From assembly GCA_035656915.1 (NCBI GenBank), contig DASRRJ010000018.1:49816-113815 (forward strand): a DNA stretch of 64,000 nt. The letters run 5' to 3'. This stretch comes from Anaeromyxobacteraceae bacterium (GTDB lineage: Bacteria; Myxococcota; Myxococcia; Myxococcales; Anaeromyxobacteraceae). Both the position numbers and the translations under genes were made by a program. A model generated the notes under the pieces. The model saw only the letters and a program-made list of their open reading frames with translations. It was not told the origin of the DNA and did not search any database. Positions 47,617 through 54,263 of the stretch are shown piece by piece (the first letter of the stretch is position 1; every line of letters begins with the position of its first letter).

Positions 47617-47874
47617 TCAGCCGCCGCTCAGCGCCTGCACGAGCTGCACCTCGTCGCCGAAGCGCAGCGGCCGGGAGAGGTCGAAGACCTGCTCGCCGTT
47701 GACGAAGCAGCGGATGTGCGGCCGCAGCCGCTCCTGCTCGTCGATCACGCGGAAGCGGAAGCCGGGGTAATGACGCTCGAGGTCGAGGAACGCCGCGGCC
47801 AGCGTCTCGCCGCGGGCCTCCACCTCCCGCGCCCCGGTGTAGGAGCGCAGCGGGCTCGGGATCAGCACCTTCAT
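47617..47874 (-). CDS. MoaD/ThiS-family ubiquitin-like sulfur-carrier protein (C-terminal GG)
   Basis: 85 aa ending ...LVQALSGG. It has a beta-grasp-like pattern. Its start overlaps the upstream stop as ATGA. Confidence 0.7.
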   Translation of the reverse strand: MKVLIPSPLRSYTGAREVEARGETLAAAFLDLERHYPGFRFRVIDEQERLRPHIRCFVNGEQVFDLSRPLRFGDEVQLVQALSGG

Positions 47875-49082
47875 GCGATACCGTCCAGCTCGGCCGCCTC
47901 CACGGCGTAGATCTCGGGGAGGTGGCGCGCCAGACAGGTCCAGCGCGCGCCCTCGTCGCGGCTCCCCCAGAGCTCTCCGCTCGTCGTCCCGAGGTAGAGG
48001 CCGACCGGGTCGCGCAGATCGCCCGCCATCGCCTGGCGCTTCACCGTCCACCACGCCTGCTCCTGCGGCAGCCCGGCGTCGAGCCGCCGCCAGGTCCTGC
48101 CGCCGTTCCGGGTGACGTAGGCGGCGGCCTTGCCCCCGGGGCTGGTGCGCGGCCAGACGCTGGTGCCGTCCATCGGGAACACCCAGGCGGTGTCGGGATC
48201 GCGCGGGTGGACCACCAGGGGGAAGCCGATGTCGCCGACCCTCTTCGGCAGGCTCCTGCCCACCCGGATCCACTCGCTCGACGGGCGGTCGAGGCGGTAG
48301 GTGCCGCAGTGGTTCTGCTGATAGAGCCGGTCGGGGTTGGCGGGGCAGAGGCGGATGCAGTGCGGGTCGTGGAACGCCGGGTTGGAGACGTCGAACCCCT
48401 CCACCACCTCCAGCCCCGCGAGGAGCGGCGCCCAGGTCTCGCCGCGATCGAGCGACTCGTGCACGCCGCCGCTCGACATGCCGACGTAGAGGTGGGCCGG
48501 GTCGCGCGGGTCGACCAGGATCGAGTGCAGCTTCGGGCCGTCGGGCGTCCCGTCCTGCGGGCCTCCCATCCAGGCCCGGTAGCGGGGGTGGTCGTTCAGC
48601 CCGGAGACCGGCTCCCAGCTGGCGCCGCCGTCGCTCGAGCGGAAGAGCCCGTGCGGCGAGGTGCCGGCGTACCAGACCCGTGGCTCGGTCGCGTGGCCGG
48701 GCGTGAGCCAGAAGGTGTGGTCGACGACGCGGCCCTTCTCGCCCTCAGGCGCCCTGGGGAAGGCGGGAGGCCGCAGGGCCTCCTTCCAGGTCCGCCCGAG
48801 GTCGGTGGAGCGGAAGATCGTGGGGCCGAGGTGCCCGGTCTTCGCCGACGCCAGCAAGGTCCGCCCGTCGCGCGGGTCGAGGACCAGGTGGTTGATGACC
48901 TGGCCCAGGAAGTGGGGCCCGTCGACCTGCCAGCGGCGCCGGGCCGCGTCGCCGCGGTAGACCCAGGCGCCCTTGCGCGTGGCGACGAGCAGGAGCAGAG
49001 GCGGCGTGGGCCGCCGCCGCCTCGAGCGCGGGGGCGTGGCGGGTCGCGGCCTCCGTGCCGTCGTCTTTCGGGTGGTCGCCAT
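47871..49082 (-). CDS. BNR/Asp-box repeat (sialidase-like beta-propeller) protein
   Basis: Five SxDxGxTW BNR repeats are present: STDLGRTW, SDGGASW, SLDRGETW, TRNGGRTW and SRDEGARW. The N-terminus is Arg-rich (possible Tat-like) and the exact start is uncertain. Confidence 0.75.
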   Translation of the reverse strand: MATTRKTTARRPRPATPPRSRRRRPTPPLLLLVATRKGAWVYRGDAARRRWQVDGPHFLGQVINHLVLDPRDGRTLLASAKTGHLGPTIFRSTDLGRTWKEALRPPAFPRAPEGEKGRVVDHTFWLTPGHATEPRVWYAGTSPHGLFRSSDGGASWEPVSGLNDHPRYRAWMGGPQDGTPDGPKLHSILVDPRDPAHLYVGMSSGGVHESLDRGETWAPLLAGLEVVEGFDVSNPAFHDPHCIRLCPANPDRLYQQNHCGTYRLDRPSSEWIRVGRSLPKRVGDIGFPLVVHPRDPDTAWVFPMDGTSVWPRTSPGGKAAAYVTRNGGRTWRRLDAGLPQEQAWWTVKRQAMAGDLRDPVGLYLGTTSGELWGSRDEGARWTCLARHLPEIYAVEAAELDGIA

Positions 49083-50448: not shown

Positions 50449-51312
50449 ATGCGACGTGTCGCCGGGCTCTTCGCCTTCTTCCTCGCCGGCTCGCTCGCCG
50501 GGTGCTCGAACCCCGGCACCCCCGCCGGTTACGTGGGATATCTGACCCGGGGGGCCGTCGTCGGGAAGACCAGCTACGTCGGCCTGCAGACCGGCCCCAC
50601 CAGCTTCGGCCTCGGTTGGATGATGAACGTGATGAACGTCTCGGTGACCCCCTTCAGCTACGCGGAGGACTTCACCGGGGACAACGCCGTGCTGGCGCAG
50701 GACAAGCTCATGATCGGGTTCCGCGCCCACACCATCTTCCGGGTGCGCTCCGACAAGGTGAAGGAGTTCGTGGAGCAGTACACCACCATCGAGCAGGGCA
50801 GGGATCAGGTGCAGGTGGCCTTCGGGAACTTCCTCAGGGAGCCGCTCCGGACCGAGATCCGGGCGGCGGTGGCCCACTACGACGCCTTCTCGCTCAACGC
50901 CAGCATCGGCAAGATCAACCAGGAGCTGACGGCCTGGGCCCAGGAGAAGACCAGGGGCACGCCCTTCGAGGTGCTGAACGTGGTGGTGGGCAACATCCAG
51001 TTCCCCGCCGCGGTGTCGCAGGCGGTGGGGGCCAAGCTGGCGGCCTCACAGGACCTCGAGACCCGCGCCACGCAGGTGGAGATCGCGAAGAAGGACGCCG
51101 AGAAGCGCATAGTGGAGGCCGAGGGCATCGCCAAGGCCACGCAGATCATCCAGCAGCGCCTCACGCCGCTCTACGTCCAGCACGAGGCCATCGAGGCGCA
51201 GAAGGCGATGGTCGGGAGCCAGAACCACACCACCATCTACATCCCGGTGGGGCCGATGGGGGTGCCCATCGTCAGCACGCGGCAGCACGGGGACGCCGAG
51301 GGCGTGAAGTAG
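50449..51312 (+). CDS. SPFH/band-7 (prohibitin/HflK-like) domain lipoprotein
   Basis: The signal peptide has a lipobox (LAGCS). The band-7 core and a coiled-coil Ala/Gln/Glu-rich C-terminus (AQEKTRG...QVEIAKKDAEKRIVEAEG) are present. Confidence 0.75.
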   Translation: MRRVAGLFAFFLAGSLAGCSNPGTPAGYVGYLTRGAVVGKTSYVGLQTGPTSFGLGWMMNVMNVSVTPFSYAEDFTGDNAVLAQDKLMIGFRAHTIFRVRSDKVKEFVEQYTTIEQGRDQVQVAFGNFLREPLRTEIRAAVAHYDAFSLNASIGKINQELTAWAQEKTRGTPFEVLNVVVGNIQFPAAVSQAVGAKLAASQDLETRATQVEIAKKDAEKRIVEAEGIAKATQIIQQRLTPLYVQHEAIEAQKAMVGSQNHTTIYIPVGPMGVPIVSTRQHGDAEGVK

Positions 51313-51357: not shown

Positions 51358-51966
51358 ATGCCGTCCTCCGAACGACACCTCTTCCTCGTCCGCCACGGCG
51401 AGACGGACTGGAACGCCGCTGGCCGCTGGCAGGGCCACACGGACGTGCCGCTCAACGCGACCGGCCGGGCGCAGGCCCAGGCCGTCGCGGCGCGGCTGCG
51501 CGGCGAGGGTGTCCGCGCGATCGCGACGAGCGATCTCTGCCGGGCGCGCGGCACGGCGGAGATCGTGGGCGAGGCGCTCGGGCTGGAGGTGGCGGTGGTG
51601 GATGAGGGCTTGCGCGAGCGCGCCTACGGCGAGTGGGAGGGCCTCACCCGCTGCGAGTGCGAGGTGCGGTATCCGGGGCAGTGGGCGCTCCACCTCTCCG
51701 ATCCGCGGGTGGCGCCGCCCGGCGGCGAGTCCATGGACGCGCTGCTCGCGCGAGTCGTCCCGGCGATCCACCGGGCCGCCGAGCGCCTCGAGGCGCCGGC
51801 GTTGCTCGTGACGCACGGCGGCGTGATGCGGGCGTTCCTCGCCGCCACGCTCGACGCGGCGCCCCTCTCGCCGCCGCGCGTCGTCCCGAATTGCGGCGTG
51901 TGGCGGGTGCGCCTGGTGGCCGGCCGCGTGGCCGGGGCGGCGGCGTTGGACGGCCACGGGCGCTGA
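51358..51966 (+). CDS. Histidine phosphatase family protein (phosphoglycerate mutase-like)
   Basis: LVRHGETDWN (RHG catalytic His), a second His in LLVTHGGVMRA and the overall length of 202 aa fit this family. Confidence 0.85.
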   Translation: MPSSERHLFLVRHGETDWNAAGRWQGHTDVPLNATGRAQAQAVAARLRGEGVRAIATSDLCRARGTAEIVGEALGLEVAVVDEGLRERAYGEWEGLTRCECEVRYPGQWALHLSDPRVAPPGGESMDALLARVVPAIHRAAERLEAPALLVTHGGVMRAFLAATLDAAPLSPPRVVPNCGVWRVRLVAGRVAGAAALDGHGR

Positions 51967-52078
51967 TTCGCTCGCGAAAACGCCGTGATCGACGGTCGTC
52001 GTTCCGTTGGTGGGCGGTTGTCCCACCCCCGGATACAGGGTACAGCGTCACCCACTCCGAACGTGCTACCGCTGTTCG

Positions 52079-52432
52079 ATGCCCCTCAAGATCGCCCTGC
52101 TGATCGCGCTCGCCCTCTCGGCCTGTAACCCCAACAACTGCGATCCGGGCTGCACCGGAAGCAACGGGAGCTGCGAGAGCTGCCCTTCTCCCTACTCCTG
52201 CAACAGCGGCGGGATCTGCAGCAGCGTCGTCAACGGCGTCGCCTGCTGCACCGGAGGCAGCGGCGGCGGCGGTGGTGGTGGCGGCGGGAGCTGCAACGCC
52301 GGGTACTGCGTCTCGAACGGCGCCTGCTGCCCGGCGGGCTCGCCGTACTACTGCCGAGGCTCCTGCTACGTCACGTACAACGACCTGCTCCATGCCGGCT
52401 GCACCACCGCGGTGCAGGGGACCTGTTACTGA
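52079..52432 (+). CDS. Small secreted Cys-rich lipoprotein (22 Cys in 117 aa) with poly-Gly linker
   Basis: The ORF was trimmed to Met25 (MPLKIALLIALALSAC, lipobox LSAC). GC3 is very high. Cys spacing is repeated (C..C...C, CC, C....CC). The central linker is G12S. No SD is obvious. Confidence 0.55.
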   Translation: MPLKIALLIALALSACNPNNCDPGCTGSNGSCESCPSPYSCNSGGICSSVVNGVACCTGGSGGGGGGGGGSCNAGYCVSNGACCPAGSPYYCRGSCYVTYNDLLHAGCTTAVQGTCY

Positions 52433-52553: not shown

Positions 52554-54263
52554 GTGAGCGTGCGCTACCACGCGCTCGCCACGGACTACGACGGCACGCT
52601 GGCGACTGCCGCGCGGGTCGGCGCGGAGACCGTCGCAGCCCTGACCCGGCTGCGCGCCTCCGGTCGCCGCCTCGTGCTCGTGACCGGCCGCATCTTCTCC
52701 GACCTGGCGCAGGTCTTTCCCGAGCACGCGCTGTTCGACGTCGTCGTCGCCGAGAACGGCGGGGTCTCCTGCCGGCCTGGCGCGGCCGAGCGCCTCCTGG
52801 CCGAGGCGCCTTCGCCTGCGCTGGCGAAGGCCCTGCGGGCGCGCGGCGTCCCGTTCGATCAGGGGCGGGTCGTCATCGCCACCCGCGAGCCGCACGACGT
52901 GACGGTGCTGGAGGTCATCCGGGAGCTCGGCCTCGAGCTCGACGTGATCTTCAACAAGGGCGCGGTGATGGTGCTGCCCTCCGGCGTGAACAAGCGCACC
53001 GGGCTCGAGGCCGCCCTGGCGGAGCTTGGGCTCACGGCGCACGAGGTGGTGGCCCTCGGGGACGCCGAGAACGACCACACACTCCTGGCGGGCGCGGAGC
53101 TGGGCGTGGCGGTGGAGAACGCGCTGCCCGCGCTGAAGGAGCGCGCCGACCTGGTCACCCGCGGCGCCAGCGGCGCGGGCGTCGAGGAGGTGATCGCAGG
53201 GTTGTTGGCCGACGACCTCGCCGGCCTGGATCCGCCCCGCCACCGCGTGGCCCTGGGCGAAGGCGCCGCGGGCGCGCTCTCCGTCTCGCCCGCCGGCACG
53301 AGGCTGCTGGTCGCCGGCACCTCCGGCAGCGGCAAGAGCACGTTCGCGAGCGGCGTGCTGGAGAAGCTCGTGGAGAAGGGGTACCAGGTCTGCCTGGTGG
53401 ACCCGGAGGGCGACTTCGAGGGCTTCCAGGGCCTGACGCCGCTCGGCTCCGCGGAGCGGACCCCCTCGGTCGAGGAGGTGGTGGCGCTGCTCGCGGAGCC
53501 GGGCATCAGCCCGGCGGTGAGCCTGCTGGGGCTGCCGCTGCGCGACCGCCCGCGCTTCCTGACCGAGCTCTGGCCCAAGCTGCAGCAGCTCCGCGCCAGG
53601 TCCGGGCGCCCGCACTGGCTGGTGGTGGACGAGGCGCACCACATGTTCCCGCGCGCGTTCGACTCGAGCGCCGCGCTGCCCCGCGACCCGGGCGGCCTGC
53701 TGCTCGTCACAGTCCACCCCGACCGGCTCGAGCCCGAGGTGCTGCGGACGGTGAACGCCGCGGTGGCGGTGGGGGAGGGCGCGGCGGCGACGCTCTCCGC
53801 CTTCTTTCGCTCTGCCGGGCTGCCCGGAGGCGGCCCCGCGGAGACGCAAGCGCCCGAGCAGGCGCTCCTGTGGACCGCCCGTTCCGGCGAGACCGTCGCC
53901 TTCCGCCCTGCCCAGCCTCGCGCGGCGCACCAGCGCCACCGGCGGAAGTACGCCTCCGGCGACGTGCACGAGAAGGCGTTCCGGTTCCGGGGGCCAGACG
54001 GCCGCCTCGACCTGCGGGCGCAGAACCTCGAGCTCTTTCTCCAGCTCGCAGACGGGGTGGACGACGAGACCTGGCGCTTCCACCTCGAGAACGGGGACTA
54101 CTCGCGCTGGTTCCGTGAGGCCATCAAGGACGAGGAGCTGGCGCGCGACGCCGCGGAGGTGGAGCGCTCGGCCGGCGGCGACCCACGGGACACCCGCAAG
54201 CGCCTGCGCGAGGCGGTGGAGCGGCGCTACGTCGTGGAGGACGCGGGGGCGGTCGCGCGCTGA
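52554..54263 (+). CDS. Fusion protein: HAD-IIB (Cof/SPP-like) phosphatase domain + HerA/DUF87-like P-loop ATPase domain
   Basis: The GTG start has GGAGAAGGTGAG upstream. The HAD motifs are I LATDYDGTLA, II LVLVTGR and IV GDAENDHTLL. After about 270 aa come Walker A (VAGTSGSGKST), a VDPEGDFEGF box and Walker B (HWLVVDEAHHMF), reminiscent of HerA/FtsK/DUF87 ATPases. Confidence 0.7.
   Translation: MSVRYHALATDYDGTLATAARVGAETVAALTRLRASGRRLVLVTGRIFSDLAQVFPEHALFDVVVAENGGVSCRPGAAERLLAEAPSPALAKALRARGVPFDQGRVVIATREPHDVTVLEVIRELGLELDVIFNKGAVMVLPSGVNKRTGLEAALAELGLTAHEVVALGDAENDHTLLAGAELGVAVENALPALKERADLVTRGASGAGVEEVIAGLLADDLAGLDPPRHRVALGEGAAGALSVSPAGTRLLVAGTSGSGKSTFASGVLEKLVEKGYQVCLVDPEGDFEGFQGLTPLGSAERTPSVEEVVALLAEPGISPAVSLLGLPLRDRPRFLTELWPKLQQLRARSGRPHWLVVDEAHHMFPRAFDSSAALPRDPGGLLLVTVHPDRLEPEVLRTVNAAVAVGEGAAATLSAFFRSAGLPGGGPAETQAPEQALLWTARSGETVAFRPAQPRAAHQRHRRKYASGDVHEKAFRFRGPDGRLDLRAQNLELFLQLADGVDDETWRFHLENGDYSRWFREAIKDEELARDAAEVERSAGGDPRDTRKRLREAVERRYVVEDAGAVAR

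Follow-up and report, generated by a model that had tools for sequence, protein, structure and literature searches.

The 117-residue cysteine-rich protein analysed here is very probably an exported lipoprotein made of two disulfide-rich modules. Its C-terminal module (C-module) recurs at the end of unrelated exported proteins of varied architecture, and in one subfamily of relatives the gene is fused to, or adjoins, genes of the disulfide-forming MauE-thioredoxin type. The protein belongs to a known kind, the disulfide-rich extracytoplasmic mini-domain proteins; it is of note mainly for its mobile C-module, which has not been described before, and for the connection with oxidative folding of the MauE type. 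A preliminary description of the same DNA had picked out a real and unusual gene, with several of its features miscounted and with family resemblances that do not hold.

A gene for a predicted cysteine-rich lipoprotein in high-GC DNA

The gene lies in a window (the whole stretch of DNA analysed, 64,000 nucleotides) with a GC content of 74%. It is overlapped by an open reading frame (ORF) on the other strand:

52079..52432, + strand: coding sequence of the Cys-rich lipoprotein, complete from ATG to TGA (354 nt, 117 codons, 117 amino acids)
51644..52393, - strand: antisense ORF of 249 amino acids that overlaps the Cys-rich gene, with a GC3 of 0.505 over the overlap

Translation of 52079..52432 (+) gives MPLKIALLIALALSAC-NPNNCDPGCTGSNGSCESCPSPYSCNSGGICSSVVNGVACC-TGGSGGGGGGGGGS-CNAGYCVSNGACCPAGSPYYCRGSCYVTYNDLLHAGCTTAVQGTCY, which is 100% identical to the deposited 'hypothetical protein VFE30_11540' from an Anaeromyxobacteraceae MAG. 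The GC3 of this frame is 0.89 (0.95-0.97 in the adjoining genes), compared to 0.505 for the overlapping portion of the antisense ORF. Against the closest homologue (locus L028, 80% identity) dN/dS is 0.27, and it is 0.08-0.18 in several other close homologue pairs. In high-GC homologues the antisense frame is likewise open, as expected of shadow ORFs. In the homologue from a host of 36% GC (L027), all three antisense frames are interrupted, by 8-10 stops each, and the sense protein is conserved.

Based on the GC3 contrast, the homologues, dN/dS and the closed antisense frames in L027, we conclude that the gene is genuine and under purifying selection, in agreement with the earlier view that it is very GC3-rich and genuinely coding. 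The grounds for refutation named in the preliminary description, a lack of homologues or a reading-frame artefact, do not apply. The minus-strand ORF is a non-coding 'shadow' of the kind common in high-GC DNA. That the gene is itself a chance ORF or a shadow of 51644..52393 (-) is exceedingly improbable: long ORFs do arise in many frames at 74% GC, a scan for promoters and terminators found no candidate site, and a clear Shine-Dalgarno sequence is not visible, but the reading is effectively refuted by GC3, dN/dS and the antisense stops in L027, and it has to contend with a cysteine pattern kept in homologues down to 36% GC and with profile matches to 53 representatives.

The protein can be divided into the following parts:

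52079..52126, + strand: lipoprotein signal peptide MPLKIALLIALALSAC, read from the sequence as MPLK-IALLIALA-LSAC
52115..52126, + strand: lipobox L-S-A-C, with Cys16 as the predicted lipidation site
52127..52249, + strand: N-terminal module (N-module), residues 17-57, with eight cysteines (C21, C25, C32, C35, C41, C47, C56 and C57)
52250..52291, + strand: flexible linker T-G-G-S-G9-S, residues 58-71, encoded by a (GGN)n tract
52292..52429, + strand: C-module, residues 72-117, with eight cysteines in the spacing C-x4-C-x5-CCP-x7-C-x3-CY-x10-C-x7-C

For the export signal we used a lipoprotein rule that combines a positive n-region, an uncharged h-region and the box [LVI][ASTVI][GAS]C with its cysteine at about position 15-35. 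With K4 in the n-region, an uncharged h-region and Cys16 in L-S-A-C, the window protein is classed as a putative signal peptidase II substrate, and the LSAC signal peptide noted earlier is borne out. The lipobox cysteine is invariant in all 32 aligned homologues; [LAGS][AGS]C boxes occur across the family and most members have a recognisable lipobox. The residue at +2 after Cys16 is Asn.

We counted 17 cysteines, at residues 16, 21, 25, 32, 35, 41, 47, 56, 57, 72, 77, 83, 84, 92, 96, 108 and 116. They are laid out as the lipobox Cys16 followed by eight in the N-module and eight in the C-module. The mature part has 102 residues when counted from Cys16 (the preliminary description had 100), of which 17 are Cys; it has 7 Tyr, one His, 2 Asp, 1 Glu, 1 Arg and no Lys, with a single CxxC and no CxC cluster. 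The earlier figure of 22 cysteines is accordingly wrong, as is that of up to 11 disulfides: because 16 cysteines remain past the predicted lipidated Cys16, at most eight disulfides are possible. Likewise, the linker described as G12S contains 11 Gly. All six cysteine motifs quoted at the time are present (CNPNNCDPGC, CESCPSPYSC, CCTGG, CNAGYC, CCPAG and CRGSC).

Across 16-32 homologues the cysteine columns show little or no variation. Together with the purifying selection, this conservation indicates a cysteine pattern beyond what chance would give. The linker, by comparison, varies between 7 and 21 residues and is rich in G, S and T. Two homologues that are otherwise identical (L001 and L015, dN=0) have G8 and G6, respectively, in this linker; the (GGN)n tract is therefore slippage-prone and polymorphic.

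An AlphaFold2 model of the whole chain is poor (pLDDT 64.5): values stay under 50 in the signal peptide and the linker, and the N-module has a low-confidence 60-70. Modelled alone from an alignment of 29 sequences, the C-module reaches a pLDDT of 83 and is predicted to form two beta-hairpins, a short helix and a terminal strand. We also considered whether the two modules are duplicates of one domain, and rejected this on an hhalign probability of 3.5%.

A rare family with a mobile C-terminal module

A search with the single sequence found 16 homologues (the identical deposited protein and 15 more), a full-length profile found 28 clusters among 5.8 billion proteins, and an exhaustive profile search found 53 proteins at E<=1e-3 among 1.84 billion representatives. 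In 185,579 species-representative genomes, matches were limited to three Myxococcota MAGs, and 14 metagenomic loci have a family member. A homologue search with the short C-module profile gave a single match, since a profile of 48 positions can hardly satisfy the E-value limit. Using tblastn, we found no match among INPHARED phages or PLSDB plasmids. A search for paralogues, proposed in the preliminary description, was carried out on six-frame translations of the window and returned only the gene itself. The family is very rare. The C-module is not limited to Myxococcota, and its hosts range from 34% to 74% GC.

Two low-GC variants with a six-cysteine N-module (L033 5001..5360 and L030 4872..5255) lie amid many small ORFs. 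Their neighbours match PHROGs (collagen-like tail fibre, phrog_1221, phrog_421) or DUF932 and DUF2786, which points to carriage on a phage or another mobile element.

In an alignment of 29 C-modules, the eight cysteines and the Pro of CCP are invariant; conservation is 90% or higher at a G, an S, a further G and the Tyr of 'CY', and the consensus also includes S-N-G and Y-Y. These positions other than cysteine (G, S-N-G, P, Y-Y, G and Y) are kept across hosts of 36%-74% GC. Many of the 53 matched proteins have the C-module only, always at their extreme C-terminus. We found three architectures: an N-terminal zinc ribbon (confirmed by Pfam Zn_Ribbon_1) followed by one transmembrane helix, a Gly/Ser/Thr linker and the C-module; a signal or anchor with a short linker and the C-module; and an Ig-like or another extracellular domain followed by the C-module. 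For example, P0014, a protein of 160 amino acids from outside the window, has a C-module 76% identical to that of the window protein behind a different N-terminal domain that looks Ig-like. We describe the C-module as mobile on the basis of this distribution over unrelated proteins; it is an autonomous C-terminal extracytoplasmic domain. At locus L001, a Big_2-like lipoprotein gene lies 22 nt downstream of the family member.

We compared the protein with known families. For the window protein, Pfam and NCBIfam gave nothing at E<=10, enzyme families included, and PHROGs gave no match. A PDB sequence search gave no match for the N-module profile and a best E of 0.085, which is spurious, for the C-module profile. 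A PDB fold search found no match. Nothing specific was found in the literature on Cys-rich lipoproteins, knottins or PF18973. A Pfam scan of all 53 domain sequences returned marginal single matches, apart from five sub-threshold matches to PF18973 ('CBL, putative chitin binding like') among 24 N-module sequences. The four that were scored individually reach 13.5-18 bits against a gathering cutoff of 25, and all are distant variants with a six-cysteine N-module; the window protein has no CBL match.

The HMM and structure searches suggested in the preliminary description thus returned no family and no PDB fold, and the likenesses that can be drawn are of general layout. The modules share with hevein and CBL domains a size of about 40-45 residues, four disulfides (here predicted), a C...C...CC...C...C order, richness in Gly, Ser and aromatic residues, flexible linkers and a place in extracellular proteins, but the window protein matches neither family and no PDB fold. 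Hevein (Chitin_bind_1, PF00187) was rejected for lack of a Pfam match and on hhalign probabilities of 0.9% and 0.5%, obtained with a hevein profile of four sequences; the hevein motif CCS-x-[FWY]-G-[FWY]-CG is absent, with P-A-G-S-P-Y-Y-C after the CC doublet. High Cys density, CC doublets and predicted stacked beta-hairpins recall granulin, EGF-like and inhibitor-cystine-knot domains, as had been proposed for granulin (PF00396) and EGF-like knottins. However, the cysteine spacing differs, no HMM, PDB-sequence or structural match was obtained, and the window protein is bacterial and, by prediction, lipid-anchored.

Cell-surface proteins of Myxococcota, for example TraA with its Cys-rich region, reportedly carry extracellular Cys-rich modules. 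The window protein resembles these Myxococcus repeats (NCBIfam Myxo_disulf_rpt) in being such a module on a putative Myxococcota surface protein; it differs in repeat unit and architecture and has no match to them in NCBIfam at E<=10. Given the lack of database and profile matches, nothing supports placing the protein among the granulin, EGF, knottin, hevein, metallothionein, MauA or Myxococcus Cys-repeat families. If the two modules are what they appear to be, they represent two new small disulfide-rich domain families without an entry in Pfam, NCBIfam, PHROGs or PDB.

Probable disulfides and the MauE-thioredoxin link in relatives

The preliminary description had left the choice between disulfides and metal binding. 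The number of mature cysteines in homologues is almost always even (16, 18, 14, 12, or 8 in the proteins that have only the C-module), as it is within each module of the window protein (eight and eight). Cysteines are also lost jointly: C21 and C32 are absent from exactly the same four of 32 sequences, and C25 and C41 are absent together from four others. Based on this co-variation, the N-module would have disulfides C21-C32 and C25-C41, with C35 and C47 paired with C56 and C57.

A further line of evidence comes from the gene context of relatives. An HMM scan of 34 loci and the window found MauE or thioredoxin-fold genes in L013, L027, L031 and L034 only, with none in the 64-kb window. In L013, a single protein (P0025) joins in one reading frame MauE (E=1.6e-25), an AhpC/TSA-type thioredoxin fold, what remains of a signal peptide, and both modules; with its signal kept inside, it may be a recent gene fusion or an artefact of assembly or gene calling. 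In L027, a MauE-thioredoxin gene stops 25 nt ahead of the family member, and two extra thioredoxin genes follow downstream. In L034, such a gene is directly upstream and overlaps the family member by 4 nt, and in L031 the family member begins inside a thioredoxin-fold ORF that contains CPAC. The motif C-x-C-F-G is found in the MauE parts. The thioredoxin part in L034 comes closest to MauD and ResA, with scores well short of the threshold.

In E. coli, MauE can take the place of DsbB; this requires its active-site CXC motif, which is followed by a conserved F-G, and among MauE entries 8.2% have a fused thioredoxin-fold domain (bioRxiv 10.64898/2026.03.05.709764). As MauE is argued to be a general DsbB-like oxidase (bioRxiv 10.64898/2026.03.05.709764), the link does not imply methylamine metabolism. 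The four MauE-linked genes form one subfamily with the C-module variant 'CCPNxAPYYYPG.HG', and the window gene is found in a different one; since the window has neither MauE nor thioredoxin and its neighbours are unrelated, the MauE link rests on this other subfamily. Taken together, the even cysteine counts, the paired losses and the MauE-thioredoxin linkage in four related loci favour disulfides over metal binding. If correct, this makes the family a natural substrate family for MauE-type disulfide formation, so far shown only by complementation of E. coli dsbB.

In three of the four MauE-linked members, the export signal is Tat-like rather than plain Sec or lipobox (L013, P0025 residues ~313-335; L034 5001..5486; L031 361..837), with the twin-arginine-like motifs TRRDAI, SRRDAV and SRREAA in L013, L034 and L031, respectively. 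In addition, genes for an ECF sigma factor and an anti-sigma factor with H-x3-C-x2-C are divergent from the pair of MauE-thioredoxin and Cys-rich genes in L013 (3..958, -) and L034 (1294..2618, -), two independent contigs, a layout that suggests control by envelope stress.

At the system level, the closest analogy is MauA with MauE and MauD. MauA carries a twin-arginine signal, and one subfamily here has a twin-arginine-like one. Both are small (about 100-130 amino acids), exported and disulfide-dense, with a gene coupled to MauE and a MauD-type thioredoxin-fold protein. Unlike in the MauA system, the window has no MauE or MauD, and no large-subunit or other mau genes were found in the contexts examined. 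There is also no sequence similarity to MauA and no Pfam or NCBIfam match. [quoted passage not shown]

We also asked which genes accompany the family in general. An all-against-all comparison of neighbours, at 5 and then 18 loci, omitted the low-GC locus L027 because of a GC3 filter, and we inspected this locus by hand. A conserved operon was rejected, as loci that are not close relatives have only the Cys-rich gene in common. In about 17 distinct contexts there is a single exception, an unannotated lipoprotein of 193/210 amino acids, just upstream of the Cys-rich gene or its MauE-thioredoxin partner (L027 3376..3957; L004 4306..4938). Its two copies are 44% identical between hosts of 36% and 74% GC, and it has no match in Pfam, NCBIfam or PDB sequences. 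It may be a functional partner, or both genes may have been transferred together.

Possible roles and genomic setting

We propose the following mechanism. Signal peptidase II would cut before Cys16, which would then be lipidated, and Asn at +2 would probably direct the protein to the outer membrane. The 102 mature residues would fold into two independent mini-domains of about 40-45 residues, each held by four disulfides in place of a hydrophobic core and connected by a floppy Gly/Ser tether of variable length. Folding would rely on periplasmic oxidative folding, for which one subfamily of relatives would have a dedicated pair of proteins, a DsbB-like MauE with a CXC active site and a thioredoxin/MauD-like protein, fused or co-transcribed. 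The product, which has no catalytic signature, would be a lipid-anchored, non-enzymatic binding protein of an adaptor or lectin-like type.

In this proposal the C-module would be the portable binding unit, because it forms the whole ectodomain of many of the zinc-ribbon/transmembrane proteins. A binding role is supported by its recurrence alone on varied proteins, by the conserved positions other than cysteine, by the confident C-module model (all beta apart from one short helix) and by the lack of any match to an enzyme family; the conserved Tyr may also simply pack against the disulfides. We regard a non-enzymatic binding module as close to evenly balanced, with doubt slightly the heavier. 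The most likely ligand would be a conserved envelope or extracellular polymer, for example a glycan; this part is speculative and, in our judgement, unlikely to hold as stated. The hint at a glycan comes from the sub-threshold CBL matches of distant six-cysteine N-module variants, and the hhalign comparison with hevein is negative. The complete account, from lipid anchor and oxidative folding to ligand, is tentative, and we lean somewhat against all of it being right.

A broader version of this account seems rather unlikely to us, though less so than the glycan ligand. It would make the two modules founding members of two undescribed extracytoplasmic domain families and the family a natural, dedicated client of the recently recognised MauE-thioredoxin pathway of oxidative folding. 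In some lineages a cassette controlled by an ECF sigma factor (sigma/anti-sigma, MauE-thioredoxin oxidase and Cys-rich lipoprotein) would build a disulfide-stapled surface binding module, and in the C-module one would have a new ligand-binding domain, widely mobile and shared by bacteria, mobile elements and possibly archaea. In practical terms, hyper-stable modules of about 45 residues with four disulfides would be useful scaffolds for protein engineering, and a portable C-terminal module on otherwise minimal membrane proteins would offer a good handle on a conserved envelope ligand.

Of the alternatives, an envelope redox or stress component fares best, though we consider it improbable. Here the protein would be a client or partner of MauE-thioredoxin under an ECF sigma factor and act as a thiol/disulfide buffer or as a sensor of oxidants or electrophiles. 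This would fit the sigma/anti-sigma genes divergent from the pair in L013 and L034 and the two additional thioredoxin genes of L027. However, neither the window nor the majority of family contexts contain the cassette, many proteins have the C-module without redox neighbours, and a mere thiol buffer would not need strong conservation at C-module positions other than cysteine.

Less probable still is a knottin-like effector (protease inhibitor, antimicrobial or toxin), released for example on outer-membrane vesicles against competitors or prey. Myxococcota are predators, low-GC variants occur in phage-like or mobile contexts, and the small size and C-C-CC-C-C framework recall inhibitor-cystine-knot peptides. 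Single C-module sequences also match Defensin_2 (E=0.015) and a spider toxin family (E=0.018), but only one of 29 sequences does so in each case, far below threshold, and no PDB fold match to a knottin, defensin or inhibitor was found. Moreover, the predicted lipid anchor and the C-terminal place of the module on membrane-anchored proteins argue for a cell-bound module, and no immunity or export gene is found near the window gene. Unlike cationic antimicrobial peptides, the mature protein is nearly free of charged residues (2 Asp, 1 Glu, 1 Arg and no Lys).

The least probable of these three readings is a metallothionein-like protein or periplasmic metal or metalloid sponge, in which 16 reduced thiolates would chelate Cu, Zn, Cd and the like within the envelope of an anaerobe that respires metals. 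The cysteine content (17 of 102 mature residues) is as high as this would ask, and the host family Anaeromyxobacteraceae is known for metal reduction. Furthermore, Tat export is typical of proteins folded or loaded with cofactor before export, and the MauE-linked subfamily has Tat-like signals. Against this, the even counts and joint loss of specific pairs are a disulfide signature, relatives are fused to or adjoin the disulfide-forming MauE-thioredoxin, and a defined beta-hairpin fold is predicted without metal. Classical metallothioneins are not known to contain aromatic residues, whereas the window protein has 7 Tyr, one His, one CxxC and no CxC cluster, as well as an export signal; no metallothionein family was matched in Pfam or NCBIfam, and the earlier comparison with metallothionein-like modules is not supported. 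Bacterial copper-storage proteins (Csp) share with this family a very high Cys content and, in some relatives, a Tat-type signal, which Csp1 has. They differ in that the cysteines here are paired and linked to an oxidase, the sequence is rich in aromatic residues and matches no such family, and the fold is predicted as beta-hairpins instead of a four-helix bundle.

The window gene itself is one isolated hypothetical gene with uninformative neighbours. These are unrelated genes of a housekeeping type that encode a 4HBT thioesterase, a Band-7 lipoprotein, a histidine phosphatase and a HAD-phosphatase/P-loop fusion, with no evident functional link. The SPFH/Band-7 protein, two genes upstream (50449..51312, +), has its own lipoprotein signal (...LAGSLAGC), and two lipoproteins are thus encoded in this neighbourhood. 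Directly downstream (52554..54263, +), a protein of 569 amino acids joins a HAD-IIB-type phosphatase (Hydrolase_3 / S6PP) to a HerA/DUF87-like P-loop ATPase, an unusual combination. Further upstream, 47871..49082 (-) encodes a BNR/Asp-box repeat protein of the sortilin/Vps10-like type.
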